Source: Candidatus Hydrogenedentota bacterium
GTDB lineage: Bacteria > Hydrogenedentota > Hydrogenedentia > Hydrogenedentales > SLHB01
DNA length: 64,000 bases
Direction of reading: 5' to 3'
NCBI GenBank assembly: GCA_963745075.1
Contig: CAVUWV010000014.1
Span: forward strand, 1 to 64,000
The position numbers and the translations under genes are program-made. Positions 9,899-45,525 of the stretch are shown here, piece after piece. Under the pieces are notes generated by a model. It was not told where the DNA came from and made no database searches. It was given only the letters and a program-made list of their open reading frames with translations. Numbering within the stretch: position 1 is the first letter of the stretch; the number at the start of each line of letters is the position of its first letter.

Positions 9899-9930
9899 GA
9901 TAACGCCAGAGCCCGGTCCGTTGTACGGGG

Positions 9931-10548: not shown

Positions 10549-11069
10549 CTTGAATCCCTCTGTTCTCGCTTACCTACCCGAGCCCCCCGCCGGACGGATC
10601 TCGTGCGACGGTGAAACCCTAGTATAGGCATACTTGACAGGGTAAGACAAATTTATTGACACATTGGAAGGGATCCGACACGCCACGGCCGATCGTGTGG
10701 ACTCCCCCGGAATTCTGACGCGCGCATAACACTTGCGCTGTAATCTTTGTGAGCACGGTGCGTTCGAGATACGGCACAGGCTCTTTGGCTTGACCGTGGG
10801 CGCGCGAGAATTCCTCAACAGTGAGCCTATCGTTCTTATCGAGAGCATTGCTCACCGCTGCCTGGGACAACGCTCGATGAGGCAAGGCCGGTGGGGCGGT
10901 GAGAGATGCGAACTAACCGGCCACCATGCAAGAGCTTGACGGAAGGCAGCAACACTTATGTCTTGGGTGGTTTCCTTGCCGACTCGCCACTTTATGTACT
11001 ATGATAATGGTGGAAGCTGGTTGTGCATTCCTCCTCGGTCGGAATCCCGGGGGGACGGAAGGGAGTTTG

Positions 11070-12002: not shown

Positions 12003-12212
12003 TTCCCGAAAGTCGCCGCTCGGGATCGGGAAGTATTTGTAGGACAGGAATCATTGCCGTCCTACTTAGACGCGCTCGTCGTCGTATCCGGCAAGCGTGG
12101 GGCGGGTACTTTGCGATACGTCGAACGAGTACGGACGAGAGGACGCAGTAGAGCGAAAACCGCGTTTTCCCTTGCCGCGACTTCCATGTGTCGCGGCAAG
12201 CCAGGGCCACGA

Positions 12213-13334
12213 TCACGGATCGAGTGCAAATGACTTGAAGGCGGGGTTGTCGAGCAACTCCTGTGCGAGGCGCTCGTAACCGGCGCGGATGGGATGACTC
12301 GCGTCGGCGTACATATCACTGGGAAGCAGATCCGGGGCGACAAACGCTGCGTTCTCGGCGTCCAGCCAGGCGATCATGCCCGCGCGCCGATCCTGATAGA
12401 CTTTCCGGTTGGCCTCCGTCAACATGTGTTCGTTAAACGGTCCCAGGATCACGAAGACGTGGTCGCCCCGCCGCTGTAACGTGTCCAATGATTCCTTGAA
12501 GAACTGCCATTGAAGTGACTCGTCCAGCGGAACCCAATCGAAATCCTGTTGTCGCATGCCTCGCTGCTCCCAGGGAATTGGTTCACTCGGAGGGGTGTCG
12601 CCGTCTTTGGGAAGAACGCCGGTGAGGGGCGCCAGCGGGTTGGTATATGGATGGTCCATACTCCACGCGGGGATGCCCTTGTTGCCGTAGTACGCGATGC
12701 GCAAGTGGCCCGTCCACGACAGGAACGACGAATCCCGATCGATTGCGACGGACAAGCGGTCGGCAAGCGAAGCGGAGTAACTGGGGACCTCGGGATAGAA
12801 CTGGGGCACCAGGATCGGATGATTGAAGCGCCGCGCGCGTTCGTCGCGAAGATCGTGGCGTTTCGAGGCGAGCCACAGGGGATTGAGGTGAAGCACGACC
12901 TTTCGGTCGGCAATCGCTTCCCCGTAATACCGGATCAGGCCCGCAAGCGCAACCGGGTGGCTCCCGTTTACGCCCATGTTGGCAAAGCGGTCTTCGCCCA
13001 CGGAAGCGTTGAGGAAATGGGACAAGGTCCCGTCGCCGACGACGTATTGGCCCCAGATCACGGAATCGCCTATGATCGGGATCTGGGACGTCGTGGCGAC
13101 GTCGTCCGCGTAGCGTTCGTAAAGCCAGTAATCGTTGCTGAGGGCGTAGGGAATCCGGTAATCAGGACCCGGCGAAAACGTTTCGTAGCGTTTCCATAGG
13201 AACGGAAGGGCGAAGTAGCAGACCGTTAGAATTGCAGCCGCCACCACCCATTGGGCGGCGGTGAGTCGCAAGGCGTTCGAGGCGAAGGGGCCGTCTTCGT
13301 CGTGCCGGTCGCTGTCGTTTTTGGTCTCTTTCAT
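12213..13334 (-). CDS. Membrane-anchored SGNH-fold protein (DltD/AlgJ/PatB-like acyl-transfer partner)
   Basis: N-terminal TM helix, block I IGDSV, block II NMGVNG, C-terminal DASH (DxxH); directly downstream of the MBOAT gene. Confidence 0.7.
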   Translation of the reverse strand: MKETKNDSDRHDEDGPFASNALRLTAAQWVVAAAILTVCYFALPFLWKRYETFSPGPDYRIPYALSNDYWLYERYADDVATTSQIPIIGDSVIWGQYVVGDGTLSHFLNASVGEDRFANMGVNGSHPVALAGLIRYYGEAIADRKVVLHLNPLWLASKRHDLRDERARRFNHPILVPQFYPEVPSYSASLADRLSVAIDRDSSFLSWTGHLRIAYYGNKGIPAWSMDHPYTNPLAPLTGVLPKDGDTPPSEPIPWEQRGMRQQDFDWVPLDESLQWQFFKESLDTLQRRGDHVFVILGPFNEHMLTEANRKVYQDRRAGMIAWLDAENAAFVAPDLLPSDMYADASHPIRAGYERLAQELLDNPAFKSFALDP

Positions 13335-13350
13335 CGTTCCTATTCTCGTG

Positions 13351-14727
13351 CTAGAACTGGAAGTAGATAAACGCTTGATCGCTGCCTGCCGGGAATATGG
13401 CGACATACAACAGCATGAAAACCACGCCGCCAATGCGTACGGGGGTCCAGTCCAGCACGTGTTTCGCGCGCGATTCATAGACAAACTGATAGGTCCAGAG
13501 CGCCAAGATCAGCCCCATGGCCAACAGGGGGAATTCGGGGTTCGCCCAGCCGCCCGTCACCATACGGCTGAGGATGGTCCACGCCTGCGGCATATCCTGT
13601 GCGCGGAAAAATACCCAGGTCAACGTCACGAACGCGAAGATCAGCATTTGCTTGCAGAATTTTGGAACGTAGGTCCGGTAGAACCGGGTGCGTTCCAGTT
13701 CGCGGGTCGCGACCCGGCCGATGGCGTGCATGGTGCCCCAAACGACAAAGGTCCACGCGGCGCCATGCCAGAGGCCCGATATCACCATCGTCAGGAACAT
13801 GTTGCGGTACGTTGCAGAGGTGCCGCCCCGGTTCCCACCCAAAGGTATGTACACGTAGTCCCGGAACCACGTGGACAGACTGATGTGCCACCGTTCCCAG
13901 AAATCGCCGAGTCCAGTGGCGAGGTAGGGATTGTTGAAGTTCAGCATGAAGCGGAATCCCATCATGCGCCCGACGCCACGCGCCATATCCGTGTAGCCGC
14001 TGAAGTCGCAGTAGATCTGCCAGCCGAAGGCGAAGGTGGCCAGAATCAGCGCGGGGGACGACTGATGTTGGGGGGCGGAATACACCTGGTCGACGTATTG
14101 GGCCAGGTAGTCGGCGATGGCCACTTTTTTGAAAAGGCCCACGACGAACAGCGAAAACCCGTCGATAACCGCTTGGGTGGTGATGGTGGTTTCGCGCTGT
14201 AGCTGCGGCAGAAGATTGGCCGCGCGTTCGATGGGGCCGGCCACCAACTGCGGGAAGAGCGAGACGAATGCCGCGAATCGAATGAAGTTGGGTTCCTTCT
14301 CGATATGACCGCGGTAGTAGTCGATCGTGTAGCTCATCGATTGAAACGTGTAGAAGGAGATCCCGACTGGAAGCAGTACGCCCGGTGCGGGCAATTGATA
14401 CGCCAATCCGCTGGACGTGAACAACGCGTTGAGATTGTCCGTGACGAATCCGGCGTATTTGAAGAACCCGAGGAGGCCGAGGTTATTGACGACGCTGACG
14501 GCGAGCCAGGTTCGCCGCCACGAGCTGCGTGCCATCATGAGTACGACGGCGTAGTCGAGCACGGTGGAATAGACGATGAGCAGGAGATACAGGGGATTCC
14601 AGGCGCCGTAGAAGACGTACGAGGCTGCCAGCAGCCACCAACTCCGATACCGGGTGCGGCGAAGCACCAGGTGGACCGGATACACCACCAGAAAGAATAG
14701 CGCGAATGTCCAAGTGTGGAAAAGCAC
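13351..14727 (-). CDS. MBOAT family membrane-bound O-acyltransferase (AlgI/PatA/DltB type)
   Basis: LGFFKYAGF, LPVGISFYTFQSMSYTID, FPQLVAGPIER, QIYCDFSGYTDMARG, NFNNPY, FWERWHISLSTWFRDYVYIPLGG, GLWHGA. Confidence 0.95.
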   Translation of the reverse strand: MLFHTWTFALFFLVVYPVHLVLRRTRYRSWWLLAASYVFYGAWNPLYLLLIVYSTVLDYAVVLMMARSSWRRTWLAVSVVNNLGLLGFFKYAGFVTDNLNALFTSSGLAYQLPAPGVLLPVGISFYTFQSMSYTIDYYRGHIEKEPNFIRFAAFVSLFPQLVAGPIERAANLLPQLQRETTITTQAVIDGFSLFVVGLFKKVAIADYLAQYVDQVYSAPQHQSSPALILATFAFGWQIYCDFSGYTDMARGVGRMMGFRFMLNFNNPYLATGLGDFWERWHISLSTWFRDYVYIPLGGNRGGTSATYRNMFLTMVISGLWHGAAWTFVVWGTMHAIGRVATRELERTRFYRTYVPKFCKQMLIFAFVTLTWVFFRAQDMPQAWTILSRMVTGGWANPEFPLLAMGLILALWTYQFVYESRAKHVLDWTPVRIGGVVFMLLYVAIFPAGSDQAFIYFQF

Positions 14728-21640: not shown

Positions 21641-24385
21641 CTATCTCGTTGCCACAAAATGGTATTTTCCGCTTGGCACCTCGATATCTACCAAGCCGTC
21701 CGCTTCGTGAGTCAAGTGAATTAGTGCGTTGGACTTCAGGGCCGCACCGCTTTCCGTAATGTCGCTCGAACCAGCCGCAGGAATTCGGACCAGCGCGGAG
21801 GTATTGGCCGGGATCTCTACATCCAAGGTGAAAGTCTTGTCGTCTATTCTCCAATTGCTGGCGACGGGGCCGCGGACGGTGTCGTACCAGGTATTGGCCC
21901 ACGTGAGATCGCCGACCGGACGGGGATCGATGATGACGTGACGGAAGCCCGGCTGTTGGGATCGGGCTTGATGCCGCCGAGGGCGCGGGGGAACCATTCG
22001 CCCGCGGCAAGCAAGGTGCTATGAATCTGCGAGTGCTCGCCGTCCCAACGCTCCCACATGGTGGTTGCGCCCTGTTCGTACATATAGCCCCACCCCGGAT
22101 ACGTTTCTTCGTCGATCATGCGGAAGGCCAGATCGTCCCGGCGGAAATCGGTCAGGCACCGAAGCAAGAACATGGAGCCGTGCATGCCCGCGTCGATATG
22201 GTCCGCATTCGTTTCGGTGATCGTTCGCGCGAGGTTGTCGAGCACGGCGGGTTGCAGGGATTTCGGTGTCACGCCGGACAGGAGGGCGAACGCCAAATAG
22301 GCTTGACCGCCGTCCACGTAGGAATTGGTATCGGGTTTGAAGTAGGTCTTGTGCGTGACCTCGCGAATGGTTTCGGCCTTCTGCGCGTAATGCGCGGCGT
22401 CGTCCTTTTCGCCCAACACGGCGGCGATCTTGCTGAGGTGATCGTTTGCATAGGCGCAGTAGCAGTTGTTGAAAAACGTCCGCCACTCCTCCGGCGACCA
22501 CGGGCGTCCGTTATCCTGGTCGTATCCCGGCGCAACCCAGTCGCCAAGGAAGCCGTATCGCTCGTCGCCGTACGGTTGCAGCAGATTGTTCTCCGATTTC
22601 GAATCGAGAAACGCAATGTAGCGCTTCATCATGTCGTAGTTGTCGCGAAGCACACGCGTGTCGCCATAGTGCAGGTACAGGTCCCATGGCAGCAGGATGC
22701 AGAATCCGCCCCAGGTCGGCCCGCCGCCGGCGCCGTGCGGGCTCGGTGCGATATTTGGGAGGTGGCCGGTCTCTGGGTCCTGTACGTCACGCCAATTGCC
22801 GAGCCATTTTGTGTACAGGTCTCCGAGATCACCCGCGTAGAGGGCGGTCTTCGACGTGATCTGACCGTCGCCGCCATAGCCCAAGCGCTCACGGTGCGGA
22901 CAATCGACCGTATCGCCGCCCGCGCATATGCAGCGATAGGTGTACATCGTGGTGTCGTAGATCCAATTGAGAAGCGGGTTGGAACATTTGAACGTTCCAC
23001 GGATTTCGTAGTCGGTTTGCACAAAGAGAGCGCGCGCGTCTTCGGGCACAGGCGGCCGCCGGAGCCCTTTGACGAGGGCGTACCGGAAGGCGTGATAGTT
23101 GAAGTGATTGCGGAAAGTCTCCATGTTGCCGGTCTGGGGAATGTACTCGTCCAGCGTGTGGTAGTCGATCCATTTGCCGGGCTCGTCGTCCGGCCGTTCG
23201 ACGTAACGGATGGAGATGGGTTGACCGGGGTCGCCTTGTACGTCCAGTTCCAACATCGCAGTGACGTTGCGCCCGAAGTCAAAGAGATACTCGTCCGGAG
23301 CGGTCGGCTCGACGGATACGGCCGTGATGCGCTCCCGCACGCGGTTGGGCTCCATCATGGGCGCGCAGAGAACCGGTGTGGGCGGTTCCGCAATCGGCGC
23401 CGGATTCCACATCGCGTCGTCAAACCCGGGCCGATCCCATCCCGGCAGTTTCCGGGCGGGATCATAGCGTTCGCCTTTTAGATTGCCCTTGGTGGTATCG
23501 CCCAATGCCGCTACCGGGCCCGCATGCGTCTTCCAGGTGTCGTCGGTAGCCAAGGTGATGGTTTTGCCATTTTCCAGCGTCACCTCCAGTTGCAGCTTGA
23601 CGAAGGGTCCGCCTGCAATGACGCCGGGGAAGGATTCGCAATACCATCCACGTCCGAGCCACGCGCCCGCACAATTTTCGCCTTGATGCACCGCGTCGGT
23701 GACGTCGTAGGTCGTGTAGTAGGCGCGTTTATTGAAATCGCTTACCGGCGGACTGCATACGTCGTCGCCGATGCGCCGGCCGTTCACGTGCAATTCTGCA
23801 TACCCCAGCGCGGCCACGTAGGCCGTCGCGCGAACGGGTTGGGCGTCGAGGGTGAAGTTCTTACGAAACAGGGGCTGAAAGGGCTCGCTCTGTTCGGCGG
23901 CCCCATCGACGCCCCCAATCCATTTCGCTTGCCAGTCACTCGGGGCCAGCATGCCCATGGACCAGTGCGCGATGCGACTCCACTCGGATGCCGCGTCGTC
24001 GCCGTCCCATACGCGGACCTTCCACCAGTAGGGGGTGCCCGTCTTTAAGGGGGTGCCCGCGTACGGGATGAGGGCCGTTTCGCTCGACGGCACCTTGCCC
24101 GAATCCCATATGTCGCCGGTGCCGGATTCGAGATTGGCCGGGGAACTCGCCACGAGAATCTGATACGCCGTCTGTTCCTGCGCGCGCTCGTCTGAACTTA
24201 CGAGCCAGGTGAGCCGGGGCTCGCGGACATCGATGCCCAGCGGGTTTTCGAGATATTCGCACCGCAGACGGGATACGGAGAGCTTGCAAGGGGGTATCGG
24301 CGGCGCCGGCCACCGGCGGCGTCAGGACCGTGATGCATGAGGCCAGGAGTGCGAAGGACAAGAGGTGAAATTCGTTTCCAAACAT
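21641..24385 (-). CDS. Glycoside hydrolase family 78 alpha-L-rhamnosidase-type protein (frameshifts at about 24270 and 21960)
   Basis: Signal peptide, WDSGKV…YWWKVRVWD, FDFGRN, DCPHRERLGYGGD, LGDW, YPGWGYM…GATTMWERW, C-terminal VEIPANTSA…VPSGKYHF. Confidence 0.88.
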
Positions 24386-24991: not shown

Positions 24992-27900
24992 GTGGACCAA
25001 GAGCGGGACTTGCTTTTCGGAATCTTATCCGTCCAGCTTAGACGCGTTGATCCGCAACAACTGGCGTTGGTGAGTGCCGACTGGGCGGGCGAGCCGGAAC
25101 GTCCGCTCGCGGAGCGCCTGGTGAAGTCCGGCCTGTTGAGTGGTGCGGACTGCCGGTTCATCGACGATATGCTTGATGAAGCCATCGAAGCGGATGGCGG
25201 AAACCTCACTAAAACCCTGGAACGGTTTGGGGGAGACGCGCAGGTCCACGATTCGTTCCTGGGCACGATTGCGCGCACTTCGACCGGTGCGATTTTGCAC
25301 TCCACGATACCCAACTTGCCGCTGGGCGCGGTGCGCATGCCAGAAGGCGCAACGGGTGTCCGCGAAGCGTGGGGACGCTATTCGAAAATAGGAGAATACG
25401 CTCGCGGCGGCATGGGGCGTGTGCTCGTGGTGCACGACGAGCACCTGGGCCGCGACATCGCCCTGAAAGAGTTGCTTCCTGTCGGCGGATCGCCGGTAAA
25501 CCGGAACACGCCCGCCAGTCAGGCGGCTCCCCTCATGGCACGGTTTCTTCACGAAGCGCGAATCACCGGTCAACTCGAACACCCTTCCATCGTGCCCGTG
25601 TACGAACTCGGGCACCGCGCCGACGGCAGCCTTTACTACACGATGCGGCTGGTTCACGGCAAGACTTTGCTGGAAGCAATCACGAAGGCAAAGTCATTGG
25701 AAGAGCGTCTGAAACTGCTTCCCCATTTTGTCGACCTTTGCAATGCGATTGCTTACGCGCACAGTCGACATGTCATTCATCGGGACATCAAGCCGGAAAA
25801 CGTGATGGTTGGCGAATTTGGCGAAACGGTGGTACTGGACTGGGGTCTAGCAAAATCCCGGGCCGCGGGGAACTTCATGGTGGAGCGGGTGAGAGCGACG
25901 CGGCGGATGAAGTTGACAGCGTACTGCTTGCGAAGACTTCTGCCGGCCAAGCCCTCGGAACGCCCGTGTACATGCCGCCGGAGCAGGCCCTCGGTCAATT
26001 GGAAAAGGTGGACGAACGCAGCGACGTGTACGCGCTCGGAGCGGTCCTGTACGAACTGTTGTCCGGCCGGCCGCCGTTTTTGGGCAAAACGTCGAAGGAG
26101 GTCTTGAAGAAAGTTGTGCTGGGGACTCCCGACGACCTTGCCTCACTGGAGCCGCGAATACCGGGCGAACTGATCGCAATTTGCCGCAAGGCCATCGAAC
26201 GAACGCCGGAGGACCGGTATCAATCGGCCAAAGAGTTGGCCGACGAGGTGCAGCGATTTCAGGCAGGCGGATTCGTTCAGGCGCATACCTACCAATTATC
26301 CGATCTCGTGTGCTGGGTGGTTCGGCGATACAAGCCAGTCGTTTTCACCGCGTGCTTTGCGCTGGTGGCGCTTGCGGCGGTCGGCACGTATTCCTACGCC
26401 AACATCCGTACCGCCCGGATCCAAGAGCACGTCCAGCGCATCGAGTCGGAGAGCCGCCTTTACGAGGTGTCCATCAATCTCGCACAACGGCACGTCAACG
26501 ATGCGAAATTGGATGTTGCACGGCGCACGCTGTCGGAGTGTTCTCCATCACTTCGCAATTGGGAGTGGGGGCGGTTGCGCTATGTGTGCGACGCGACCTC
26601 GGTGGTGTTAACCGGCCACACGGCGAGGGTGCTGGACGCGGCCTTCAGTCCGGACGGTAGTCACGTGGTTACGCTCGGAGAAGACAACGCGGCTATTCTT
26701 TGGGACACGGCTCGGGGGGAGGAAGTGCTGCGGGTCGATCCGGGGCTGGTGACGTTTGGAAGAGTTGCATTCAGTCCGGATGGTGGTGAATTTGCGACGT
26801 GCGGGTCAGAAGGGCTCGTCAAGATTTGGAGCGCGGAAACGGGCGCCCTTTCGGAAACTCTGAAGTCTGAGCGGGGGGAGGCCCTCGCAGTCTCATACAC
26901 TCCGGACGGTAAACGGATTGTTGGGGGTTTGGGTGGGGGCGCGATTCAGGTCTGGAACCGGGAATCGATGAGGACAGAGCGACTGTGCGATACCGGCGGC
27001 GCTGCCGTGCAAAGCGTCGTCACGAACGCGGCCGGCACCATTGTCGCCGCGGGGTGCAGCAACGGGGCGATCCTCACCTTCAACGTCACGACGGGCGAGA
27101 CCGTGTCAGAAATCTTGGCGCATCCCATCAATCTCCACAAGGGGGTTCTCGGCGTCACCGACGTGGCGTTTCGGCCCAATCACGATCAGATCGCGTCATG
27201 CGGATGCGACGACACGGCGAAACTGTGGGACCTGAATACCGGGCAGTTGCTGCAAACATTTCACGGCCACGGCCAGAAAGTATGGACGGTTTCATTTACG
27301 CCTGACGGGCGCACCCTTGCCACGTCGAGTTCCGACGGCGAGGTAAAGACGTGGGACCCGGACAGCGGAGTGGAACGGACACGGGCAATCGGCCTGAACG
27401 AGGGAATCGTATGCGCGCGATATAGCTCGGATGGCCGCCATCTCGTGACCGCCGGGGACAATCCGGTAGTTCGTATCTGGAATGAGGCCGAACCCTTTGG
27501 GGCATTTCCTCTGCGCGGCCATACCGCCGACGTGAACGCGGCGGCATTCAGCCTTGACGACCGTATACTGGCGAGCGGCGCAGGGCACTGGTCCGCCGGA
27601 GGAGACTCGCGGGTAATCTTGTGGGATGTTGCAACGCATCGCATCCTCCGGGTGTTGGAGGGCCACTTTGGGATGGTCTATGCCGTCGCCTTCCACCCGA
27701 ACGGACGCTGGGTGACCTCCGCGGGTGGCGATCGGCGCGTCATCACCTGGGACATCGATACCGGAGATATCGTTCGTGAATTCTCCGCCGATTTGCATCA
27801 AAACGGTATTCGTTCTATCGCATACAGCCCCGACGGCTCGCGATTTCTAACGGGGGGATGGGACGGTGACAACGGGATTGCGTCAGTAGCCGTCATCTGG

Positions 27901-28422
27901 GATGCGGCATCGGGAACGGCCTTGCATACCCTCGTTCCGCATGGAAGCGTCCTCGATTCGGTGGCCTGGAGCCCGGACGGAGCCCTCGTGGCGACCGCGT
28001 GCCGCGACGGCGTCGCGCGGGTGTGGGATGCGGAAAGCGGATCCTTGGTGTGGGAATTGAAAGCGGACGTTGAGAGTGAACACTGGGCGTATAGCGTGGT
28101 TTTCGATCCTCGCGGAGGGCGGTTGGCCTCCGCGTATTCGTCGGGGGCGATTTTTATCTGGGATCTTTCTACGGGACGGCGTGTGCAACAATTAACGGGA
28201 CATTCGATTCGAGTCAACAATCTGACGTATTCGCCCGACGGTTCGCGCTTGGCGTCCTGCGACAACTCAGGTGTGAACGTTTGGAACCCAGACAGCGGCG
28301 CCTTACTCCTAAGCCTCCCAAACGGCTCCAACGAGGTAGCCTTCAGTCACGACGCGCTCACCCTCGCGACCGCCGGCATAAACGGCGACGTCATCCTGTG
28401 GCCGGCGCTGCCGTGGCAGTAG
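24992..28422 (+). CDS. Hanks-type Ser/Thr protein kinase with C-terminal WD40 repeats (frameshift at about 25880)
   Basis: ARGGMGRV, IALKE, HRDIKPEN, DWGLAK, GTPVYMPPEQ, SDVYALG, then a hydrophobic segment and many GH…FSPDG…WD repeats. Confidence 0.92.
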
Positions 28423-29845
28423 TTACGGCGTTGCAGTAATTGCCGCGACCCAGCCCCCGGAGTCCGATGCTCCGATGAGAATAGGCTGACCCCCTTGGAG
28501 GGTTGCACGCGGGCCCCAGTCGCCGGTTTGGATGTTCACCCAACGGGCGTCGAAATTCGCATCGTATTCGCTGAGGTCCAGCGTAACCTTGCCGCCGTCG
28601 GTGAAGTAGAGGATGTAGGCCTTGCCTGGTCTTGCGGCGAGATAGGCCTCGTCCTCTTCGCGGTCGGAGAGGAGTTCCATGTGCGGCTCCACGTCCCAGA
28701 ATTTGGCGACGCTCTCCACCTTGCGGGCGGACGCGATGCAGGCTTTGGCAATGTCGTTCAGTCCGATGCCCCCGCCGGGACGGTGAAACCGGCATGACGC
28801 CGCGCCCGCGATGAGATTGCGCCAGAACCGTTCCTTTCCGTCCGTCGGGGTGCCGGAACCCCAAGACAATTCCGCCGTCGGAGTAGATCTTGGTGTTATT
28901 CAACGGCCGCGGCGAATCGGCGAGTTGCTGAACGACCCAGTAGGTCCGGTTCCAATGCTCTTCGTTGAATGAGCGGCTGTTGACCTGGGAGATGTCGATG
29001 AAGGTGTACGCTTTCGGGTCGTCGATGGCTTGCCGAATTTTCGCGGAACGCTGCGGTTCCCAGCCGTCGTCGAACATGTCTGTGACGTATGCCGTTACTC
29101 CCTGTGCGGCGGCCGCGTCCTGAATGCGTTTCATCCAATACCGGCCCCACGCGGGCGGCGTCGAGGTTTCATTGTCCATGCAATACAGGACGTTGCCGTA
29201 CTGGAGGCTGTAGGATAACATCTTGTCGACGATGCGCTCCTGATAGCCGCGCACGAGGTCGAGCTGCTTGGCATACAGCGGCATGCCGGGAATGGTGTGA
29301 AAGAACGGCTGTTTGTCGCGCCAGGCGGGTTGCGGATATTGGTTTGTCAATCCCGACTGTTCAACGGAGTAGTTGGCGTTGTTCGCAGGCCGCCACGGGC
29401 TGGCTTCCCAATGTTGCTGCGAATAGTCGAAGCGATCCCATACCTCAATCTGCACGACGATGTCGCGTTCCGCGCAGAGACGCAGGCAGTTCTCGAATCG
29501 CTGCCAGTATGCGTCGTTCCATCGATCGAGATCGTACTTCCCATCGGGCGATCGCTCGAAGGGATAAACCTCGAATCCCGCGTCCTGCCGGGCACTCATC
29601 GTATTGCGAATGACGTTGCCGCCGGCCGCTTTCAACTCGTCGAGCTGCGCTTCCAGGTCGGGAATCTGAAAGAGATTGTCGTCCTTGCTGCCGCCGAGCA
29701 GAAGTACCGGCTCACCCTTGTACTGCCAATACCGGGGATTCTCGGCGTATGGGCGGATATAGTCCGCCGGGTCGACGGCACCGGCCGCAAACGGCAGGAA
29801 TAGCAACAGCACGGCCACGACTCGTTGCATGGTACTATGCCTCAC
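28423..29845 (-). CDS. Exported TIM-barrel glycoside-hydrolase-like protein with C-terminal beta domain (frameshift at about 28870)
   Basis: Signal peptide, NPRYWQYKGEPVLLLGG, VQIEVWD, VLYCMDNE (clan A-like NE), RPLNNTKIY; continues as ERFWRNLIAGAASCRFHRP in ORF 28423-28869. Confidence 0.65.
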
Positions 29846-32381: not shown

Positions 32382-33377
32382 TCACAGGCGGTCGGGCAGT
32401 TCGCGATAGTGGAACAACCGGTTAAAATCGAGCAGACCCGAAAGTGCCGTCGAGATGACGCGCATTCCCAGCTCTTCCAGTATAGCCACTGGGTTCAGGC
32501 CCCCGATGACGAGCGCGCCGATTCGGCCTTGGCTGACGGGGATTTGGAAGAGATCTCGCCCGGGCAAACCGACCTCGACCAAGCCGCCGAGGCCGATTGC
32601 GTCCAATTTCTGTGCGAGATCAATGGTGAGTTGCCGGCTTTCGGCGGGGAACTCCCGAAAGCTCGCCCCGATCCGGCCGTTGCCGGTTTCGATCGCGCCC
32701 AAGTAATCCGTCATGGCGCTACGGATGAAGATTTCGAGGGGATCGATACTCGTGCCGTCGTACGTAATGATCTCGAGAAACCGGCGCGGTCGCCCGTTGC
32801 GAAGTTCGAGCAGTCCCCCAAAGCGAGAGCGGGTGGGGATGCCGTGTTTCAGCAGGACGCCATTGAGTGTGATCGAACACACCGAGCAAAATCCCAGCAT
32901 TCCCTCAGGAACGGTGAGCTTTCCAATACGCTCGCCGGGCTGAAGCAATGCCAGCAGGGAACCCATGGCGTATCCTTTTTCGAAGACTCTGCACACCTTG
33001 TCTACGCATGACGTGAGTTGCTGGGCTTCTACGAGCGACGTGTTTACCACGACCGTACCGGTTCGCGTCGCGAGATCGAAGTTCATCCAATAGGTCATCT
33101 GGTCGATCTTTGCCGACAAGAAGCCGACGCGTTCCAAGGCCTGTGAAGCGTCCAGCTCCTCCAGCCCCTTTTCGGTAATGCGCCGTCCGCGCCGGCCCAG
33201 ATTACGGGTCAACCCCGTTTTATCGAGTTCAAGCAGGTCCAGTCGCACCGTGCGTTCGCTGACTTCGTACCCTTGATTGGAAAGCATCCGTGTTATGCCG
33301 GCGCTATTTACTGCTTCTTCACTTTCCCGCAGTGCGGTCAGAATTGCCAGTTTGCGCTTCTCTTTGTGCTCTGTCAT
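32382..33377 (-). CDS. nrpR: Nitrogen regulatory transcription repressor NrpR (wHTH plus one NRD domain)
   Basis: GYEVSERTVRLDLLELDKTGLT…GRRITEKGLEEL wHTH; GTVVVNTS, SVCSITLNGVLLKHGIP…FGGLLE, YDGTSIDPLEIFI, ASFREFP, IGGLNPVA. Confidence 0.88.
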   Translation of the reverse strand: MTEHKEKRKLAILTALRESEEAVNSAGITRMLSNQGYEVSERTVRLDLLELDKTGLTRNLGRRGRRITEKGLEELDASQALERVGFLSAKIDQMTYWMNFDLATRTGTVVVNTSLVEAQQLTSCVDKVCRVFEKGYAMGSLLALLQPGERIGKLTVPEGMLGFCSVCSITLNGVLLKHGIPTRSRFGGLLELRNGRPRRFLEIITYDGTSIDPLEIFIRSAMTDYLGAIETGNGRIGASFREFPAESRQLTIDLAQKLDAIGLGGLVEVGLPGRDLFQIPVSQGRIGALVIGGLNPVAILEELGMRVISTALSGLLDFNRLFHYRELPDRL

Positions 33378-33649
33378 CGGTCCGTCCTTGTTTTGGCACG
33401 GGTTTCAGAAGTTGGACCTGCGCGTTGGTGCGGCCATCATGCGTGCTTCCCAGGGGAGAACAAAAGCCCGCGCCGCAACCCATTCAAATCGGATCGATCG
33501 GATCGAATTGTGGTGTACCCCGGTTAAAACGCGCGGTCATCACGATTCAGCATCCCGCAAGAAGCGGGCTTTCTGCGCGTTCAGCTCCAAGTGGACGTTG
33601 ATTAAGATTGCGGTTGATAAGCTCCTACCGGCAAGACGCCAGGCATGTA

Positions 33650-33781
33650 TGGCAATATATTGCCAGATAGTACGGCTCATGTTGATGGCGATCAAGAAAA
33701 AATTTGCATTTTAGGCTATGATTTGCTTTTCTAAGGCTCCATTGTGGCATTTTATTGCCAATATTGTGGCAAGTAGATGCG
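33650..33781. promoter_or_regulatory. Candidate NrpR operators GGCA-N6-TGCC
   Basis: TGGCAATATATTGCCA (33650-33665, perfect palindrome), TGGCATTTTATTGCCA (33745-33760) and near match GGCAAGTAGATGCG (33768-33781) in the nrpR-hydC-like intergenic region. Confidence 0.6.
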
Positions 33782-33828
33782 GTGCGGCGTTGCCACGAAG
33801 AATTCGGGGGAATTCTGGGGGATCGCGT

Positions 33829-34344
33829 ATGGATCTGTCTGAGCTCGACACCATTCTAGACAGCAAAGGGACCGAACCGTTTGTCGTCATGGAAGTCCTT
33901 CAAGACGTTCAGGACGCCTACCGGTACCTGCCAGAGGAGGCCATCGTCCACATATCCGAACGGCTGGACGTGCCGGTCATCGAGGTGTTCCGGTTGGCCA
34001 ACTTCTATAAAGCGTTTTCCTTGAAGCCTCGCGGACGGCATCTCGTGACGGTTTGCGCGGGGACGGCCTGTCACGTCCAGGGTGCTCCCCGGTTGCTCGA
34101 TACTGTACTCAGCATCCTCGACACGAAGCCGGGCGAGACGACTTCCGATGGTGCTTTCACGGTGGAGACCGTCAATTGCCTTGGCGCCTGCGCTTTGGCT
34201 CCGGTCGTCGTGATAGACGGGCAGTACTACGACCACATGACGCCCGGGAAAGTGCAGTCCCTCATCGAGGATATCCGGTTCGATGACGAACTGGAGGAAG
34301 ATGATGAAGAAGAGGAGGCGCAGGCCAATGCCGGAACTGGATAG
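33829..34344 (+). CDS. NuoE/HydC-type [2Fe-2S] thioredoxin-like subunit
   Basis: LQDVQDAYRYLP, ANFYKAFSL.PRGRH, VCAGTACHVQG, VNCLGACALAP; acidic C-terminal tail. Confidence 0.93.
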   Translation: MDLSELDTILDSKGTEPFVVMEVLQDVQDAYRYLPEEAIVHISERLDVPVIEVFRLANFYKAFSLKPRGRHLVTVCAGTACHVQGAPRLLDTVLSILDTKPGETTSDGAFTVETVNCLGACALAPVVVIDGQYYDHMTPGKVQSLIEDIRFDDELEEDDEEEEAQANAGTG

Positions 34345-36181
34345 TGTCGCCTCCCTCGAAGGACGGCGTGAGGAGATCTGCCGCACGCTCGCGGGGTACG
34401 ACAAGATTGTCACCATGTGCAGCGGCACCGCGTGCCAGGCTTGCGGGTGTCAGCCCGTGGCACGAGCCATGGCGCGGGAATTGCAAAAGCAGGGTCTCGG
34501 GGACACGGTCCTGTTCCGGCGGACTGGTTGCCATGGGTTTTGCGAGCAAGGACCATTGGTGATTATCGATCCGGACGGCATTGTCTACGTCCATGTGACA
34601 CCGGATGACGTGCCCGAAATCGTCACATGCACGGTTCGTAACGGGGAGGTTCTGGATCGGCTTTCGTATACGGATCCCGTCTCGGACCGAGCGATCCGGA
34701 CTGAAGATGAGATCCCCTTTTACGCCGCACAAAACCGCTCTCTCCTTGGGGAAAATCGCCACGTTGCGCCGCGGGACGTCGACGACTACATCGCCCGGGA
34801 CGGATACGCGGCGTTGGCCAAGGTGTTGAACAGCATGACTCCGGAGGCGGTCGTGGACGAAATCATCCAGTCCGGTCTCCAGGGTCGCGGCGGAGGCGGC
34901 TATCCCACGGGCAAGAAGTGGAGTCAGTGCCGCAACGCCCTCGGGGAAACACGGTATGTGATCTGCAACGCGGACGAAGGCGACCCTGGTGCGTACATGG
35001 ACCGCAGTCTGCTCGAGGGGAACCCCCATTCCATTATCGAAGGGATGATCATCGGCGCTTTCGCGATTGGGGCCAGCCAAGGTTTTGTCTACGTGCGGAA
35101 AGAGTACCCCCTGGCGGTGGTGAATACCGGGGTAGCCCTGCGCCAAGCGCAGGCGCTCAATCTTCTCGGTGAGAACATTCTGGGGACGGGATTCGATTTC
35201 GACATCCAAGTCGTCCGCGGCGGGGGAGCATTTGTGTGCGGCGAATCGACCGCGCTGATGGCGTCGTTGGAAGGAAGGGTCGGCGAACCGCGCCCCAAAG
35301 ATATCCATACGGTTGAGCGCGGCTATTTGGGGCAACCGACGGTGCTGAACAATGTCGAAACGTGGGCCAATGTCCCGGCCATTATTCGCCACGGCGCGGC
35401 GTGGTTTGCAGATCAGGGCACCGAGCAGAGTAAAGGAACCAAGATTTTCGCACTGACGGGCCAGGTGAAGAACACGGGGCTCATCGAAGTCGAGATGGGC
35501 ACGACCCTTCAGAAAATTATCTTCGACATCGGCGGCGGACCCAAGAACGGGCGCGAGATTAAGGCCGTTCAAACCGGTGGACCTTCGGGCGGTTGCTTGC
35601 CGACGTCCCACTTTGACTTGCCCGTCGATTTCGACGCCCTATACGCGGCCGGCTCCATGATGGGGTCCGGCGGAATGGTTGTCATGGACGACTCGGCGTG
35701 CATGGTGGACGTCGCCAAGTACTTCTTGAATTTTCTCCAGGACGAGTCGTGCGGAAAGTGTGTTCCGTGCCGGATCGGTGTAGGCCGGCTACTGGAAATC
35801 GTCACGGATATTTCCGAGGGACGGGGCACGCTGGAGCAACTCGAACTGCTGGAAGAACTGTCGTGGACGATCTCCGTCAGTTCGCTTTGCGCCTTGGGGA
35901 AGACTGCGCCGAATCCCGTGCTTTCCACATTGAAGTATTTCCGAGACGAGTACCTGGACCACATCGAGAACAAGCATTGCGCCGCGGGTGTGTGCCGCGC
36001 CCTGATTCGCTACTCCATTGAGGATCGGCTTTGCGACCGCTGTGGCAAGTGCATCACGAACTGTCCGCACAAGGCGATCAAAGGCGACAAGGAAAGCGGA
36101 TACACGATTGACGACGAATTGTGCAACCGATGCGGCATCTGCTCCGATGCCTGTGAACAGCACGCGATACCCGTACGATGA
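34328..36181 (+). CDS. NuoF/HydB-type FMN/NAD(P)H-binding subunit with N-terminal [2Fe-2S] and C-terminal 2x[4Fe-4S]
   Basis: CSGTAC…TGCHGFC, GLQGRGGGGYPTG, CNADEGDPGAYMDR, GGGAFVCGES, ESCGKCVPC…SLC, HIENKHCAAGVC, CDRCGKCITNCP, CNRCGICSDAC. Confidence 0.94.
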   Translation: MPELDSVASLEGRREEICRTLAGYDKIVTMCSGTACQACGCQPVARAMARELQKQGLGDTVLFRRTGCHGFCEQGPLVIIDPDGIVYVHVTPDDVPEIVTCTVRNGEVLDRLSYTDPVSDRAIRTEDEIPFYAAQNRSLLGENRHVAPRDVDDYIARDGYAALAKVLNSMTPEAVVDEIIQSGLQGRGGGGYPTGKKWSQCRNALGETRYVICNADEGDPGAYMDRSLLEGNPHSIIEGMIIGAFAIGASQGFVYVRKEYPLAVVNTGVALRQAQALNLLGENILGTGFDFDIQVVRGGGAFVCGESTALMASLEGRVGEPRPKDIHTVERGYLGQPTVLNNVETWANVPAIIRHGAAWFADQGTEQSKGTKIFALTGQVKNTGLIEVEMGTTLQKIIFDIGGGPKNGREIKAVQTGGPSGGCLPTSHFDLPVDFDALYAAGSMMGSGGMVVMDDSACMVDVAKYFLNFLQDESCGKCVPCRIGVGRLLEIVTDISEGRGTLEQLELLEELSWTISVSSLCALGKTAPNPVLSTLKYFRDEYLDHIENKHCAAGVCRALIRYSIEDRLCDRCGKCITNCPHKAIKGDKESGYTIDDELCNRCGICSDACEQHAIPVR

Positions 36182-36191
36182 GGGATGAATT

Positions 36192-36833
36192 GTGTCAGAG
36201 CCGGTAACGATTGTCGTAGATGACGTGACCATCGAAACAACGCAAGGGGCGAACGTCCTTGAAGTCGCCCTCGAGGCGGGAGTCTGCATCCCGAATTTGT
36301 GTCATTTGCCGGAAGTGACACCCAGTGGGGCCTGTCGCGTCTGCCTCGTTGAGGTGGAGCGCAACGGACGAACGAAGATGACGGCCGCGTGCGCACTCGA
36401 AGCCAAGGACGGAATGGTCGTTCGGGCTCACACGGAAAACGTGGAACGGGCCCGGCGTAACATTGTCGAGTTGTTGTTGGCGGAAGCGCCGGAATCGGCG
36501 GTACTCCAAACCTTGGCCGAGCGGCTCTGCGTGGAAGAGGTCCATTACCCCGAACGCGAACGTGACTGCATTCTGTGCGGGCGTTGTGTAGCGACCTGCG
36601 CGGAGATCGCGAAAGAAGGGGCGTTGGGCATGATCGGTCGGGGCGCCAATCGCCACACCGGGCTGCCCTTCTACAAGGAGGAATACTGCTCGCAGTGTAA
36701 TGAATGTCATGACCGCTGCCCCATGGAAATCTCGCCCTCCGGAAGGAGCGGGGATAAATGCGGGGTCTGCGGCTCGGAATTGTCCGTGAACGAGGAGATT
36801 CCGGAAATCTGTGAAGAGTGCGTGCTGGGGTGA
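36192..36833 (+). CDS. Short NuoG/HydA-N/HoxU-like Fe-S relay subunit with no catalytic domain
   Basis: IPNLC…GACRVC…AAC [2Fe-2S], CILCGRCVATC, CSQCNECHDRCP, extra C-terminal CGVC…CEEC. Confidence 0.88.
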   Translation: MSEPVTIVVDDVTIETTQGANVLEVALEAGVCIPNLCHLPEVTPSGACRVCLVEVERNGRTKMTAACALEAKDGMVVRAHTENVERARRNIVELLLAEAPESAVLQTLAERLCVEEVHYPERERDCILCGRCVATCAEIAKEGALGMIGRGANRHTGLPFYKEEYCSQCNECHDRCPMEISPSGRSGDKCGVCGSELSVNEEIPEICEECVLG

Positions 36834-36921
36834 TTGGATTCTTTTTTGAGCACGCGTAGGGGGGGCTCTTGCCGCACATTTGTAAGCGGACGTTGGGGGC
36901 CGGAACAGGGAGTGTTAGACG

Positions 36922-38529
36922 GTGAATCTGCAAAGACCAAATTCAAACGACGTATCTCAAACCGAAAACCGATCGCTGAACGTAGTGCCTCAGTCGGGCC
37001 TCTGTACCCGGTGCATCGACGGGTGCAAGGGCAACTGCGAAGTGTTCAAGGCGACGTTCCGAGGGCGCGAAGTCATTTATCCCGGGCCGTTCGGCACGCT
37101 GACTGCCGGTGGGGACAAGGATTACCCGGTAGACTACTCCCACTTGAACATCCTGGGATATGCGTTCGGTGCCGATGGGCTTCCCGAAGGCGTCCCGGCT
37201 GATTCGGATCACGCCGTTTTCCCCAAGGTGAATACGGAGACCAGCTTCGGGTGCGAAAACAAGGTGAAGATGCGCGTGCCCGTTTTCACGGGTGCACTTG
37301 GTTCGACCGACATCGCCAAAAACAACTGGGGCCACTTCGCAGTCGGTGCGGCCATCAGTGGAATATCCCTGGTTTGTGGCGAGAACGTCTGCGGTATCGA
37401 CCCCGAGCTTGAACTGGACAGTCACGGCAAGGTCAAGAACGCGCCCGACATGAAACGCCGCGTGAACACCTATCGACGCTATCATGAAGACCCTTACGGG
37501 GACATCCTGGTACAAATGAACGTGGAAGACACGCGGTTTGGCGTGGCGGAGTACGTCATCGACCAACTCGGTGTAACGACCATGGAATTGAAGTGGGGGC
37601 AGGGCGCGAAATGCATCGGGGGAGAAATCAAGGTCAATACCCTCGAACGCGCGTTGGAACTTCAGAAGCGCGGCTACATCGTTACGCCCGATCCGTCCAA
37701 CCACGCCATCCAGGCCGCGTTTAAGGACGGCGCAATCAAGGAGTTCGAGCGCCATTCCCGGCTTGGCTTCATCGACCAGGAGACCTTCATGAAGGAGGTC
37801 GAGCGGCTCCGCGCCCTCGGGGCCAGGCGCGTCACGCTCAAGACGGGTGCGTATAGCATGCGCGAGTTGGCTATGGCCATTAAATGGTCGTCGGACGCGA
37901 AGATCGATCTGCTGACAATAGATGGCGCCGGTGGCGGAACGGGGATGAGCCCGTGGCGCATGATGGAAGAGTGGGGGATTCCCACGTTTTACCTCCAGTG
38001 CATGGCCAACGAGTTGTGCACGATGCTGAGCGAGAAAGGTGCGTACGTGCCGGATATCGCCATCGCCGGCGGATTCTCGACCGAAGATCACATTTTCAAA
38101 GTGCTCGCCATGGGAGCGCCTTACGCCAAGGCTGTCTGCATGGGACGCGCGCTGATGATCCCGGGAATGGTCGGCAAGAACATCGGTGAATGGATCGGCG
38201 CGAACAAACTCCCCAAATCCGTTTCGCCTTTCGGCCGAACCAAGGAAGAGATCTTTGTCTGTTACGAAGAGCTTCGCGCCCGCTACGGCGATGAAGTCGA
38301 TGAGTTCCCATTGGGCGCTATCGGCGTGTATAGCTTTGTGCAGAAACTCGAAATCGGGTTGCAGCAGCTCATGGCGGGTGCGCGGCGCTTCCGTCTCGAT
38401 ACCATCTGCCGCAAAGACGTAACAGCGTTGACCGAGGATGCGGCGAAAGTCAGCGGCATCCCGTATGTCATGAACGCCTACCGCGAAGAGGCCCTGGCCG
38501 TAATGAACGGCAATGGCCTTGCGAGTTAG
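36922..38529 (+). CDS. Stand-alone FMN-binding glutamate synthase domain protein (GltB central domain family)
   Basis: FTGALGS, CGEN, MELKWGQGAKCIGGE, LTIDGAGGGTGMSP, WGIPT, AIAGG, KVLAMGA, MGRA; N-terminal CTRCIDGCKGNC. Confidence 0.88.
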   Translation: MNLQRPNSNDVSQTENRSLNVVPQSGLCTRCIDGCKGNCEVFKATFRGREVIYPGPFGTLTAGGDKDYPVDYSHLNILGYAFGADGLPEGVPADSDHAVFPKVNTETSFGCENKVKMRVPVFTGALGSTDIAKNNWGHFAVGAAISGISLVCGENVCGIDPELELDSHGKVKNAPDMKRRVNTYRRYHEDPYGDILVQMNVEDTRFGVAEYVIDQLGVTTMELKWGQGAKCIGGEIKVNTLERALELQKRGYIVTPDPSNHAIQAAFKDGAIKEFERHSRLGFIDQETFMKEVERLRALGARRVTLKTGAYSMRELAMAIKWSSDAKIDLLTIDGAGGGTGMSPWRMMEEWGIPTFYLQCMANELCTMLSEKGAYVPDIAIAGGFSTEDHIFKVLAMGAPYAKAVCMGRALMIPGMVGKNIGEWIGANKLPKSVSPFGRTKEEIFVCYEELRARYGDEVDEFPLGAIGVYSFVQKLEIGLQQLMAGARRFRLDTICRKDVTALTEDAAKVSGIPYVMNAYREEALAVMNGNGLAS

Positions 38530-38645
38530 TCGGGGATCCGTTCAAATGATCAACGCCCACCGCCGGTATCGCAGCCGGTGGTGGGCGCAATTGATTGGAC
38601 CGGCGCTGATTGTACCCCTGTCTCGGCAGTCCGTCTGGATTTTCC

Positions 38646-42600: not shown

Positions 42601-42906
42601 CTACACGTTGTTATCCGCGATGGGCAGCCTCAATTCTCGGGCTGCGTGATGCACGGTTAGAATCTGAGCTTCGCCGGGCTGAAGTCTGTAGATGATCCGA
42701 TAATTTCCCAGAATGATTTCTCGAAAGGAAGGATCGCTCACTTCAGGAACGATACGTCCTGATTCGGGGAAGTCTGCCAAGCGATCCACGGCATCGAATG
42801 CTCGTTCCGCGAATACGGAAGCAATAGGCGGTGCGTCGCGAGCGATGAATAGGCAGATGGCCTCCAGATCATCCAGGGCTTGCGGTGTCCACTTTACTGC
42901 AGCCAT
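42601..42906 (-). CDS. RelE/ParE family type II toxin
   Basis: VKWTPQALDDLEAI..FIARDAP…LADFPESGRIVPE…REIILGNYRIIYR…ILTVHH. Confidence 0.9.
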   Translation of the reverse strand: MAAVKWTPQALDDLEAICLFIARDAPPIASVFAERAFDAVDRLADFPESGRIVPEVSDPSFREIILGNYRIIYRLQPGEAQILTVHHAARELRLPIADNNV

Positions 42907-43076
42907 TTCGCCATACGCTGACGTGCCTCGTCCTGGCTGATCAGCCGGCCGGCATCAGCCTGCTCGACGCCCTTATCAATCTTGTAGAGCAGATAGAGGC
43001 GTTCCAAAGCGTCCGCGACGTTCGCGTCCTCGGGCAAGTCTTCGATGGCCTTCAACATCTGTTGCTTTGTATGCAC
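42894..43076 (-). CDS. Cognate antitoxin (60 aa) of the RelE/ParE toxin
   Basis: GTG with RBS GAGGA; TKQQMLKAIEDLPEDA…KIDKGVEQADAGRLISQDEARQRMAKW; overlaps the toxin start. Confidence 0.8.
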   Translation of the reverse strand: MHTKQQMLKAIEDLPEDANVADALERLYLLYKIDKGVEQADAGRLISQDEARQRMAKWLQ

Positions 43077-43878: not shown

Positions 43879-44130
43879 TCAGGAGGCGTCTAGTTTCTCG
43901 CTGACCCACTCCTTGAGAACGTCCGTGTCCGTCATACCCCTGCTCTGGGCGATTCTGTGTAGCGCGTCGGCTTCTTTGTGGTCAAGAGAGACCTGCACGA
44001 CGATCCGGTCTTCGCGATCGAATACGGTCTCTGCAATCTCCAGCAATTCGTCTTCGAAATCAGTGATGTCGTGCGTGTCCCAGAACCGGGCCATTTCCTC
44101 AACTGCGTCCGTCTGTGGAATTTGTGTCAT
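43879..44130 (-). CDS. brnA: BrnA/CopG-like antitoxin
   Basis: EEMARFWDTHDITDF…ADALHRIAQSRGMTDTDVLKEWVSEKL; ATGA overlap with the toxin gene. Confidence 0.78.
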   Translation of the reverse strand: MTQIPQTDAVEEMARFWDTHDITDFEDELLEIAETVFDREDRIVVQVSLDHKEADALHRIAQSRGMTDTDVLKEWVSEKLDAS

Positions 44131-44408
44131 CTCTTCCTCTGTTTGAATCGCCTTTTCTCGGCGTCCGTCATCGGTCGTGCCGTGACCGGATACCCGTTGC
44201 CTTTAGGAAATTGTATCACAACGCAGAAAAGATACTGCCCTGCGATGGTCCGTCCAAGGACGTAATAGACTGGATTCCGGTCTTCGGATCGGGCACGCAG
44301 CACGAGCGGATGGCCGAAGCAGACCTCCTCGACATCGTGTGGCCGGATGCCGTGTTTCGCGATATGCTCAACGCGATCTTGTGGCCCTATCAACTCACGG
44401 ATCACCAT
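44127..44408 (-). CDS. brnT: BrnT family toxin
   Basis: EHIAKHGIRPHDVEEVCF…YYVLGRTIAGQYLFCVV…VTARPMTDAEKRRF. Confidence 0.82.
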   Translation of the reverse strand: MVIRELIGPQDRVEHIAKHGIRPHDVEEVCFGHPLVLRARSEDRNPVYYVLGRTIAGQYLFCVVIQFPKGNGYPVTARPMTDAEKRRFKQRKR

Positions 44409-45159: not shown

Positions 45160-45258
45160 CAACGTCCATCCCGTCTCTGAGCCGTGGACCGTCAACGTCC
45201 ATCCCGTCTCTGAACCGTGGACCGTCAACGTCCATCCCGTCTCTGAACCGTGGACCCT
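45160..45258. repeat. Tandem repeat, 3 x 33 bp
   Basis: Unit CAACGTCCATCCCGTCTCTGA(G/A)CCGTGGACC(G/C)T starting at 45160, 45193 and 45226, with no spacers. Confidence 0.9.
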
Positions 45259-45525
45259 CAATAATCCGGTTTTCATCTGCGGACCCGTTCTATCATTGGT
45301 TGCGGCTCTGCCGCGCTGGGCTACGGGACGGGCCGCCCCGTCCGGGGCTGCACGCAGGCACCCGGCCAGGCGGACGGGCCTCGGACTAGGACTCGACGAA
45401 GTCGTTTTGGCCATTCCGATCCGGGTCATTGGGAATTGTCTCGGATTTCGTGCTTCGAATTCTGGCTTTGGACGCGGCTGCGCCTCGTTGTGCATGCCTA
45501 TACCGTCTGCGGTCAGGATGAACGC

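Follow-up and report, generated by a model that had tools for sequence, protein, structure and literature searches.

What does a flavin and iron-sulfur module of electron-bifurcating type do beside a stand-alone protein resembling the flavin mononucleotide (FMN) domain of glutamate synthase, in an operon that faces a nitrogen regulator? We addressed this question for a locus on contig CAVUWV010000014.1 of a Candidatus Hydrogenedentota bacterium (GCA_963745075.1; 6.8 Mb, 89.7% complete; G000 among our genomes), where the window analysed comprises positions 1 to 64,000 (contig C14). To judge from their sequences, the bfuC, bfuB and bfuA genes and the FMN gene that follows them encode a real, conserved and apparently undescribed variant of the Type 2 Bfu enzymes, with a well-supported link to nitrogen and a predicted chemistry. 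Tentatively, and with nearly even confidence, we propose a confurcating enzyme that uses NADH together with reduced ferredoxin to form glutamate from 2-oxoglutarate and free ammonium, as a substitute for glutamate dehydrogenase (GDH). The features of the locus are as follows.

nrpR: 32382..33377, minus strand; 331 residues, winged helix (PF08461) and one NRD1/NRD2 pair (PF01995), predicted 2-oxoglutarate-sensing repressor
Candidate NrpR operator 1: 33651..33664, no strand; GGCA-N6-TGCC palindrome, from the sequence pattern
Candidate NrpR operator 2: 33746..33759, no strand; GGCA-N6-TGCC palindrome, 70 bp before the bfuC start
bfuC (HydC/NuoE-like): 33829..34344, plus strand; thioredoxin-fold [2Fe-2S] C1 (PF01257), Cys76/81/117/121, acidic C-terminal tail
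bfuB (HydB-like): 34328..36181, plus strand; 617 residues, FMN/NAD site, clusters B1-B5, Ala222/Met224, GGPSG 417-421
bfuA: 36192..36833, plus strand; 213 residues, A1 [2Fe-2S], A2 and A4 [4Fe-4S], no A3 motif
FMN gene: 36922..38529, plus strand; 535 residues, divergent glutamate-synthase-like FMN (beta/alpha)8 protein, predicted catalytic subunit
G+C-rich hairpin of 14 bp: 38554..38587, no strand; after the FMN gene and before a convergent PKD-domain gene, where the operon probably ends

Gene order and the electron-transfer subunits

A preliminary description of this DNA had placed nrpR divergent from HydC-like, HydB-like, short HydA-like and FMN genes; all five open reading frames were found in place, with their domains confirmed. 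nrpR and bfuC are separated by 451 bp, bfuB starts at an ATG with a GAGGAG site and overlaps bfuC by 17 bp, and gaps of 10 and 88 bp precede bfuA and the FMN gene. A terminator scan made no call in the gaps between the four genes. Downstream, the fold of 38535-38610 reached -38.5 kcal/mol (z -4.1; 0 of 200 shuffles equally stable), and the hairpin within it was not among the calls of that scan. The short gaps, the lack of an internal terminator and the stable hairpin after the FMN gene together make a single bfuC-bfuB-bfuA-FMN gene transcript likely. No promoter was detected by a scan of the nrpR-bfuC intergenic region.

BfuB has the long architecture first ascribed to it, since all five cluster sites and the FMN/NAD domain could be located (N-terminal Cys31/36/68/72; Cys475/478/481/521; Cys458-His545-Cys551-Cys556; eight C-terminal cysteines). 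Its best matches in the PDB, 7t2r_B (760 bits), 9mqx_B, 7q4v_B and 8a6t_B, are all beta subunits of bifurcating enzymes, compared with at most 390 bits for non-bifurcating formate dehydrogenase (Fdh) and complex I subunits. Every B1-B5 ligand, including those of the two C-terminal [4Fe-4S] clusters, aligns with 7t2r_B, 9mqx_B and 7q4v_B. The accessible text of Losey et al. (2020, PMC7311640) marks bifurcating beta subunits by Ala or Glu232, Met234, Phe367 and GGPSG. BfuB has Ala222, Met224 and GGPSG at the corresponding places; position 367 does not map exactly, and the candidates 302, 360 and 374 are all Phe. The other HydB of the genome (contig C31) carries Thr/Lys at the Losey positions and Tyr in GAYVCGE, and has no GGPSG. 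In BfuC, the PF01257 match and four cysteines agree with the thioredoxin-like [2Fe-2S] cluster C1 of BfuABC enzymes.

BfuA matches 9mqx_A best (E 4.1e-29), a chain taken to be WorA. The part of PMC12318220 available names 9mqx and describes WorA as a subunit without A3 that has a zinc finger and accepts electrons at A4. The cysteines of A1, A2 and A4 are conserved in an alignment of BfuA relatives, and the protein ends in a CxxC...CxxC tail, overlooked earlier, which is probably a zinc finger as in WorA. A domain search found neither an H-cluster nor a molybdopterin domain in BfuA, and the NiFe large subunit (PF00374) had no match in the 89.7% complete genome or directly after bfuA, which bears out the initial statement that the third subunit has no such domain and that no NiFe subunit follows. 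With A1, A2 and A4 present, A3, A5 and a catalytic domain absent and a fourth gene in the cluster, BfuA is by its sequence a Type 2 subunit as classified by Schut et al. (PMC9304861, accessible text), most like WorA. Having no catalytic site, it requires a partner or acceptor at A4. We dropped the idea that the tail marks this system alone (present in 38 of 39 linked versus 2 of 30 not co-oriented) because the controls were long Fdh or hydrogenase subunits, and other short BfuA as well as WorA have such tails.

Wor-Bfu, the WorABCSL enzyme of Acetomicrobium mobile and, with other Type 2 BfuABC enzymes, among the closest known systems (PDB 9mqx; PMC9304861 and PMC12318220, as far as their accessible parts go), resembles the window operon in its BfuBC core with B1-B5 and C1, in its short BfuA with A1, A2 and A4, no A3 and a four-Cys zinc-finger-like tail, and in placing the catalytic site on an extra subunit. 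It differs in that the window operon has no WorS or WorL, its extra subunit being an FMN barrel, and the window BfuA stops just past its last CxxC, too soon to include the adaptor helix of WorA.

Pairing of the bfu genes with the FMN gene

A sample of 135 genomes from the host phylum gave 27 FMN-gene loci with a strong match. bfuA lies immediately upstream in 23 of the 24 assessable loci (three more are at contig edges); in the exception (G001), nrpR faces the FMN gene and bfu genes are absent. The close FMN lineage of this phylum (74-91% identity) has a divergent nrpR in G000, G103, G094 and G002, and a second lineage (50% identity) often stands behind a sigma-54 two-component system. Among the best 30 of 72 matches in Planctomycetota, bfuA is upstream in 12 of 26 assessable loci and not in 14, with four at contig edges. 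Elsewhere, 217 of 401 genomes in G136's phylum and 63 of 401 in G135's carry a member of the FMN family. The family is large and strongly conserved, the best 120 of 7,999 scored homologues being 74-94% identical.

We then searched the 401 genomes of G136's phylum with a profile of close BfuA, scoring only seven candidates per genome. The profile selected 12 genomes at 262-296 bits (next match 202), and all 12 encode the FMN protein, 11 of them in the close lineage and one as a contig-edge fragment; the close FMN lineage overall occurs in about 78 of the 401 (hand count). Four of the 12 close bfuCBA operons adjoin the FMN gene, in three differing orders, and eight are orphans, with no FMN gene within the stretch examined. 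Overall, the linkage was seen in four gene orders. A maximum-likelihood tree groups all 31 linked or co-occurring BfuB in a single clade (ultrafast bootstrap, UFBoot, 100) apart from 12 other HydB/NuoF-like sequences, a small control set with no characterised member. Within these 31, Met234 and GGPSG are invariant and Ala232 is kept in 30. The BfuB clade thus appears to track the FMN protein whatever the phylum or gene order, and the dedication of a Bfu-type core to that protein is supported; because the genomes share kinship, the pairing counts overstate significance.

This tracking also bears on whether the Bfu module could serve an enzyme from another locus (a hydrogenase, a formate dehydrogenase or a tungsten enzyme), with the FMN gene only sharing its promoter. 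We consider that highly improbable, since the only H-cluster subunit of the genome, on C31, comes with a HydC of its own and with a short HydB whose residues are of the non-bifurcating kind, and no NiFe large subunit was found. In favour of such a partner are one FdhF/YdeP-family gene on C35, a convergent molybdopterin gene in G815 and, in G668, an AOR-like gene that follows bfuA at a distance of 2 kb.

The dedication of the module to the FMN protein has to be weighed against several counts that tell the other way. The FMN protein usually lacks adjoining bfu genes, as is so for most close homologues outside the host phylum: among the best 30 of 232 matches in G136's phylum, bfuA is upstream in 1 of 29 assessable loci (one at a contig edge), with a convergent bfu operon in two and nrpR faced in seven, and among the best 80 FMN loci over all genomes bfu genes adjoin in one and nrpR in two. 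Close BfuA is itself rare (12 of 401 genomes), and a Mo/W oxidoreductase lies near two of the eight orphan bfuCBA operons. Of the linked BfuB, only 19 of 31 have the complete four-Cys B2, one B2 cysteine being missing in 12, and 4 of 31 have a GltD-like domain in place of B3/B4.

The scarcity of adjoining bfu genes, the eight orphan operons and the GltD-like fusions would suit an explanation that keeps the same partners and the reductive amination but needs neither strict confurcation nor a stable complex: BfuABC would work as a diaphorase for NAD(P)H or as a module that balances ferredoxin, with free ferredoxin feeding the FMN protein in the way presumed for its many stand-alone relatives. 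We regard this as unlikely, given that BfuA needs an acceptor at A4 and that nearly all linked BfuB retain the bifurcating signatures. A complex prediction for the FMN protein with BfuA scored 0.00 and was used neither for nor against either explanation.

Several neighbouring arrangements were observed in the same survey. BfuB-GltD-like FAD/NADP fusions upstream of bfuA and the FMN gene (L149:7110-10349, L143, L150, L346) may represent an alternative electron input. In a third FMN lineage (L349-L351), the FMN gene is divergent from bfuCBA with a 435-residue HTH/cupin-type regulator between them, and the neighbours are GDH, type I glutamine synthetase (GS-I) and, by eye, probable GAF-ANTAR proteins. 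LuxR-type regulators facing orphan bfuCBA (L330, L331, L337, L339) have an N-terminal sensor-like stretch with no Pfam match, which recurs in histidine kinases beside the 50% lineage (L142, L145) and may sense a common signal. Two FMN-family paralogues lie close together within one locus in L050:9001-13651, L352 and G166:C10.

NrpR, candidate operators and nitrogen genes

The NrpR of the window, encoded by a single-copy gene, matches PF01995 at E 2.4e-79 and the winged helix PF08461, with 3nek (MJ0159, E 7.9e-24) as its sole PDB match. In the host phylum, nrpR occurs in 57 of 135 genomes, at 58 loci, G006 contributing two that look like duplicates. These loci face NADP-specific GDH in 39 cases, bfuC in four, the FMN gene in one, other genes in 11 and a contig edge in three, the GDH type resting on tblastn comparison with one member that itself exceeds the PRK09414 cut-off. 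The bfu operon occupies the place opposite nrpR that is held in relatives by NADP-GDH, not by glutamate synthase (GOGAT). In the host genus, nrpR and the FMN gene are found together in G000 and G103 and are both missing from four other genomes.

The regions between nrpR and gdhA share a palindrome, and its two relatives in the window had gone unnoticed earlier. GG[AC]A-N4-T[TG]CC is present in 37 of 39 of them (resampled mean 1.6, maximum 6); the first 22 loci, 21 of them positive, served to define the pattern, which 16 of the remaining 17 also showed. N6 spacing occurs in 14 of 39 (resampled mean 1.5), N7 in four and N5 in none. The N6 form is found in three of four nrpR-bfuC regions and in 1 of 11 other nrpR loci, with two copies of GGCA-N6-TGCC in the window and two in G103. 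Reading these palindromes as a sigma-54 promoter was rejected: they have 9 bp between GG and GC, and sigma-54 promoters have 10 bp.

The archaeal operator of Methanococcus maripaludis is GGAA-N6-TTCC, and in the available text of PMC2723118 that system resembles ours in its winged helix and NRD domains, in the same palindrome spacing and in two sites near one promoter. It differs in the half-site, which is GG[AC]A here, and in the N4 spacing that dominates at gdhA. Support for the palindromes is positional. Counting against them, the window as a whole has four, which is not above chance (1.6 expected), and none lies upstream of the glnA, gltB or gdh of the window genome, so that this NrpR looks local rather than global. 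A genome-wide regulon sought by motif was not found, and the palindrome is not enriched before stand-alone FMN homologues (2 of 76). Taken from sequence and position, NrpR control of the bfu operon, as first supposed, is likely, and the nrpR-gdhA palindrome is a candidate bacterial NrpR operator that would define a small regulon. By analogy with archaeal NrpR, the protein on the two window palindromes would repress the operon until 2-oxoglutarate rises; this direction is tentative, since in Clostridium thermocellum GDH activity drops 64-fold under ammonium limitation (PMC9888227, accessible text).

The nitrogen context originally proposed for the locus was likewise upheld around the FMN family at large. 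Nitrogen-assimilation genes lie near 36 of the best 80 FMN loci (a raw count, with no random control), the neighbours being GS-I in 23, GltB-like genes in 12, AmtB in nine, P-II in eight and GDH in five. The window genome itself has a canonical gltB-gltD pair on C20, two glutamine synthetase (GS) genes and two GDH-family matches, which score 171 and 106 bits compared with an NADP-GDH cut-off of 536. One fact sits poorly with a replacement of GDH: G103 and G002 keep a gdhA-type GDH besides the operon.

Among smaller observations, a GDH-family gene at G000:C30:16240-17542 spans two overlapping frames and is probably frameshifted. In G002 (L139:2083-3507, 9635-13660), the genes flanking the operon encode NADP-GDH, a PPDK_N-domain protein and a PurF-like protein of amidotransferase fold that seems to lack the N-terminal Cys.

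The FMN protein and the predicted reaction

The identification of the FMN protein as a GltB-type domain stood in part. PF01645 matched above its cut-off (E 1.3e-16), covering only residues 284-413, and alignment with the genome's own GltB showed GE, Q..RFG, KxxQGAK.GG, the barrel Lys and GGTGxSP kept in the same order. Of the residues presumed to bind 2-oxoglutarate in GltS, the Lys230, Gly234, Thr340 and Gly341 equivalents are kept; the Ser loop has moved, and a counterpart of the Arg can be named only with doubt. As the single-sequence AlphaFold model was poor (predicted local distance difference test, pLDDT, 36), we used an alignment-based model (pLDDT 87), which predicts an FMN (beta/alpha)8 barrel and whose top Foldseek match is the ferredoxin-dependent GltS (Fd-GltS) 1ofd (E 3.8e-11, 18% identity).

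Other features depart from glutamate synthase. Overlooked at first, the N-terminus carries a CxxCx3Cx3C motif (Cys28/31/35/39), each Cys of which is kept in 49-51 of 56 aligned FMN homologues, with gaps there in five; residues 1-40 of the model have pLDDT 39-64, so that the position of the motif is uncertain. Compared with the GltS synthase domain (Synechocystis Fd-GltS 1ofd, Azospirillum GltS 6s6s) and the split archaeal-type GltB2, the FMN protein shares the barrel and motifs and differs in this four-Cys motif, in its missing [3Fe-4S] cysteines, amidotransferase and GXGXG domains, and in a GALGST loop. An archaeal GltB2 alone reportedly makes glutamate from ammonia.

The assignment of glutamate chemistry must contend with these departures and with the structural comparisons. 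The GltB [3Fe-4S] motif Cx5Cx4C is absent from the window protein and from 12 homologues aligned to GltB, a loss that had escaped the preliminary description, and the GAMSxG substrate loop of GltB reads GALGST. Identity to GltS is 17-18%, and hhalign gave a probability of 54% for the match to GltB. In VIA-align, flavocytochrome b2 (Z 26.9, root-mean-square deviation 2.8, 293 residues aligned) and type 2 isopentenyl diphosphate isomerase (Z 26.7) ranked above GltS 6s6s (Z 23.5, deviation 3.6), which yet gave the longest alignment, at 361 residues. PDB sequence and profile searches with the FMN protein returned designed TIM barrels only. The function given here for the FMN family is a prediction. 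Because the barrel matches several enzyme classes, the fold alone does not set the substrate.

A different substrate (a 2-oxo acid, imine or 2-hydroxy acid) or a catabolic direction such as glutamate oxidation, with an indirect nitrogen link, would accommodate the equally good fit to hydroxy-acid oxidases, the altered loop and the sigma-54 two-component systems that, rather than NrpR, often accompany the 50% lineage. It seems improbable to us on several grounds: the GltS-type motifs KxGQGAK and GGTGxSP are retained, the His-Arg motif of hydroxy-acid oxidases was not seen at the substrate loop, and the neighbours are GS, P-II, AmtB, GltB and GDH. Moreover, the glutamate couple lies at about -0.14 V (range -0.12 to -0.15 V), far more positive than the donors, so that only the reductive, confurcating direction is plausible; bifurcating oxidation of glutamate to NAD+ and ferredoxin would be strongly uphill.

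The proposal in the preliminary description that the module replaces GltD now appears unlikely, since canonical gltBD is present, the GATase_2 and GXGXG matches of the window genome (89.7% complete) lie only inside GltB, and the place opposite nrpR belongs to NADP-GDH in relatives; a stand-in for NADP-GDH fits better. A glutamine-dependent GOGAT with the Bfu module in GltD's place and a glutaminase subunit in trans is thus very unlikely, even with homology to the GltB synthase domain, with GS-I as the commonest FMN-family neighbour and with further GltB-like frames of about 1,000 codons in G001 and G002. The FMN protein contains no glutaminase domain, the only GATase_2 match in G000, G103, G094 and G135 is inside canonical GltB, and G913, whose operon is intact (genome completeness not given), has neither a GATase_2 nor a GXGXG match. 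A weak search found no longer or fused form of the FMN protein; fusions suggested by long open frames were rejected, the frames being upstream open sequence.

We return to ammonium-dependent amination by a confurcating enzyme. In Bfu enzymes, according to the accessible text of PMC9304861, BfuA carries mid-potential electrons between a third substrate and an NAD(H)/ferredoxin core poised at about -280 mV for NAD(H) and about -500 mV for ferredoxin. The four genes would form such a Type 2 enzyme, with the FMN protein as its third-substrate subunit. BfuBC would draw two electrons each from NADH and reduced ferredoxin, and the resulting mid-potential electrons (about -390 mV, NADPH-like) would pass through A1-A2-A4 of BfuA to a cluster on the N-terminal four-Cys motif and then to FMN, which would reduce the imine of 2-oxoglutarate and free ammonium to glutamate. 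The enzyme would thereby do the job of NADP-GDH, or of Nfn plus GDH, without NADPH or ATP and alongside canonical GS-GOGAT. With the glutamate couple assumed above and a glutamate/2-oxoglutarate ratio of 100, the computed equilibrium lies at 0.4-4 mM ammonium for NADH alone and at 0.08-0.8 micromolar for NADH plus ferredoxin, which describes equilibrium only, not affinity or rate. NADP-specific GdhA and Nfn-Bfu/Stn plus GDH are alike in the proposed net reaction and NADPH-level driving force, and the bfu operon has GdhA's regulatory position opposite nrpR; they differ in being unrelated proteins, the chemistry here being that of flavin and Fe-S clusters with NADH and ferredoxin as proposed donors.

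Somewhat more tentatively still, the system may represent a third-substrate class new to Bfu, with confurcating, glutaminase-free glutamate formation at micromolar ammonium without ATP or NADPH, within a very common FMN family of anaerobes that can be wired to ferredoxin, Bfu or Bfu-GltD modules and with bacterial NrpR as a dedicated switch for GDH-type amination. If true, this would add a third ammonium-assimilation route beside GS-GOGAT and NAD(P)H-GDH, tie electron bifurcation directly to nitrogen metabolism and give a function to a highly conserved flavoprotein family widespread in uncultured anaerobes. We found no published description of a bfu-FMN system in a literature that excluded most subscription journals. 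Schut et al. (PMC9304861) name neither glutamate nor 2-oxoglutarate as a third substrate, and the strings 'glutam' and 'Glt' are absent from the main text and one supplement file of that paper, whose tables and figures may hold more; the accessible text of a Hydrogenedentota Bfu survey (PMC11406978) covers H-cluster enzymes only, and that of PMC12018979 mentions glutamate synthase only as the source of an NfnL-like domain.

Elsewhere in the genome, G000:C31:123000-134000 (L355) encodes a group A [FeFe]-hydrogenase with a short HydB of non-bifurcating type, maturase genes and, by eye, a probable Rex regulator. In the window, a Ser/Thr kinase-WD40 gene (24992-28422) is divided between two frames, and the reading frames at 21844-24153 and 28391-29845 likewise stop at what look like frameshifts, which may be assembly errors. 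The stretches 42601-43045 and 43879-44400 hold, judged by eye, two probable toxin-antitoxin pairs, one RelE/ParE-like and one BrnT/CopG-like, and a short tandem repeat at 45200-45300, three copies of about 30 bp, is visible in the translations.

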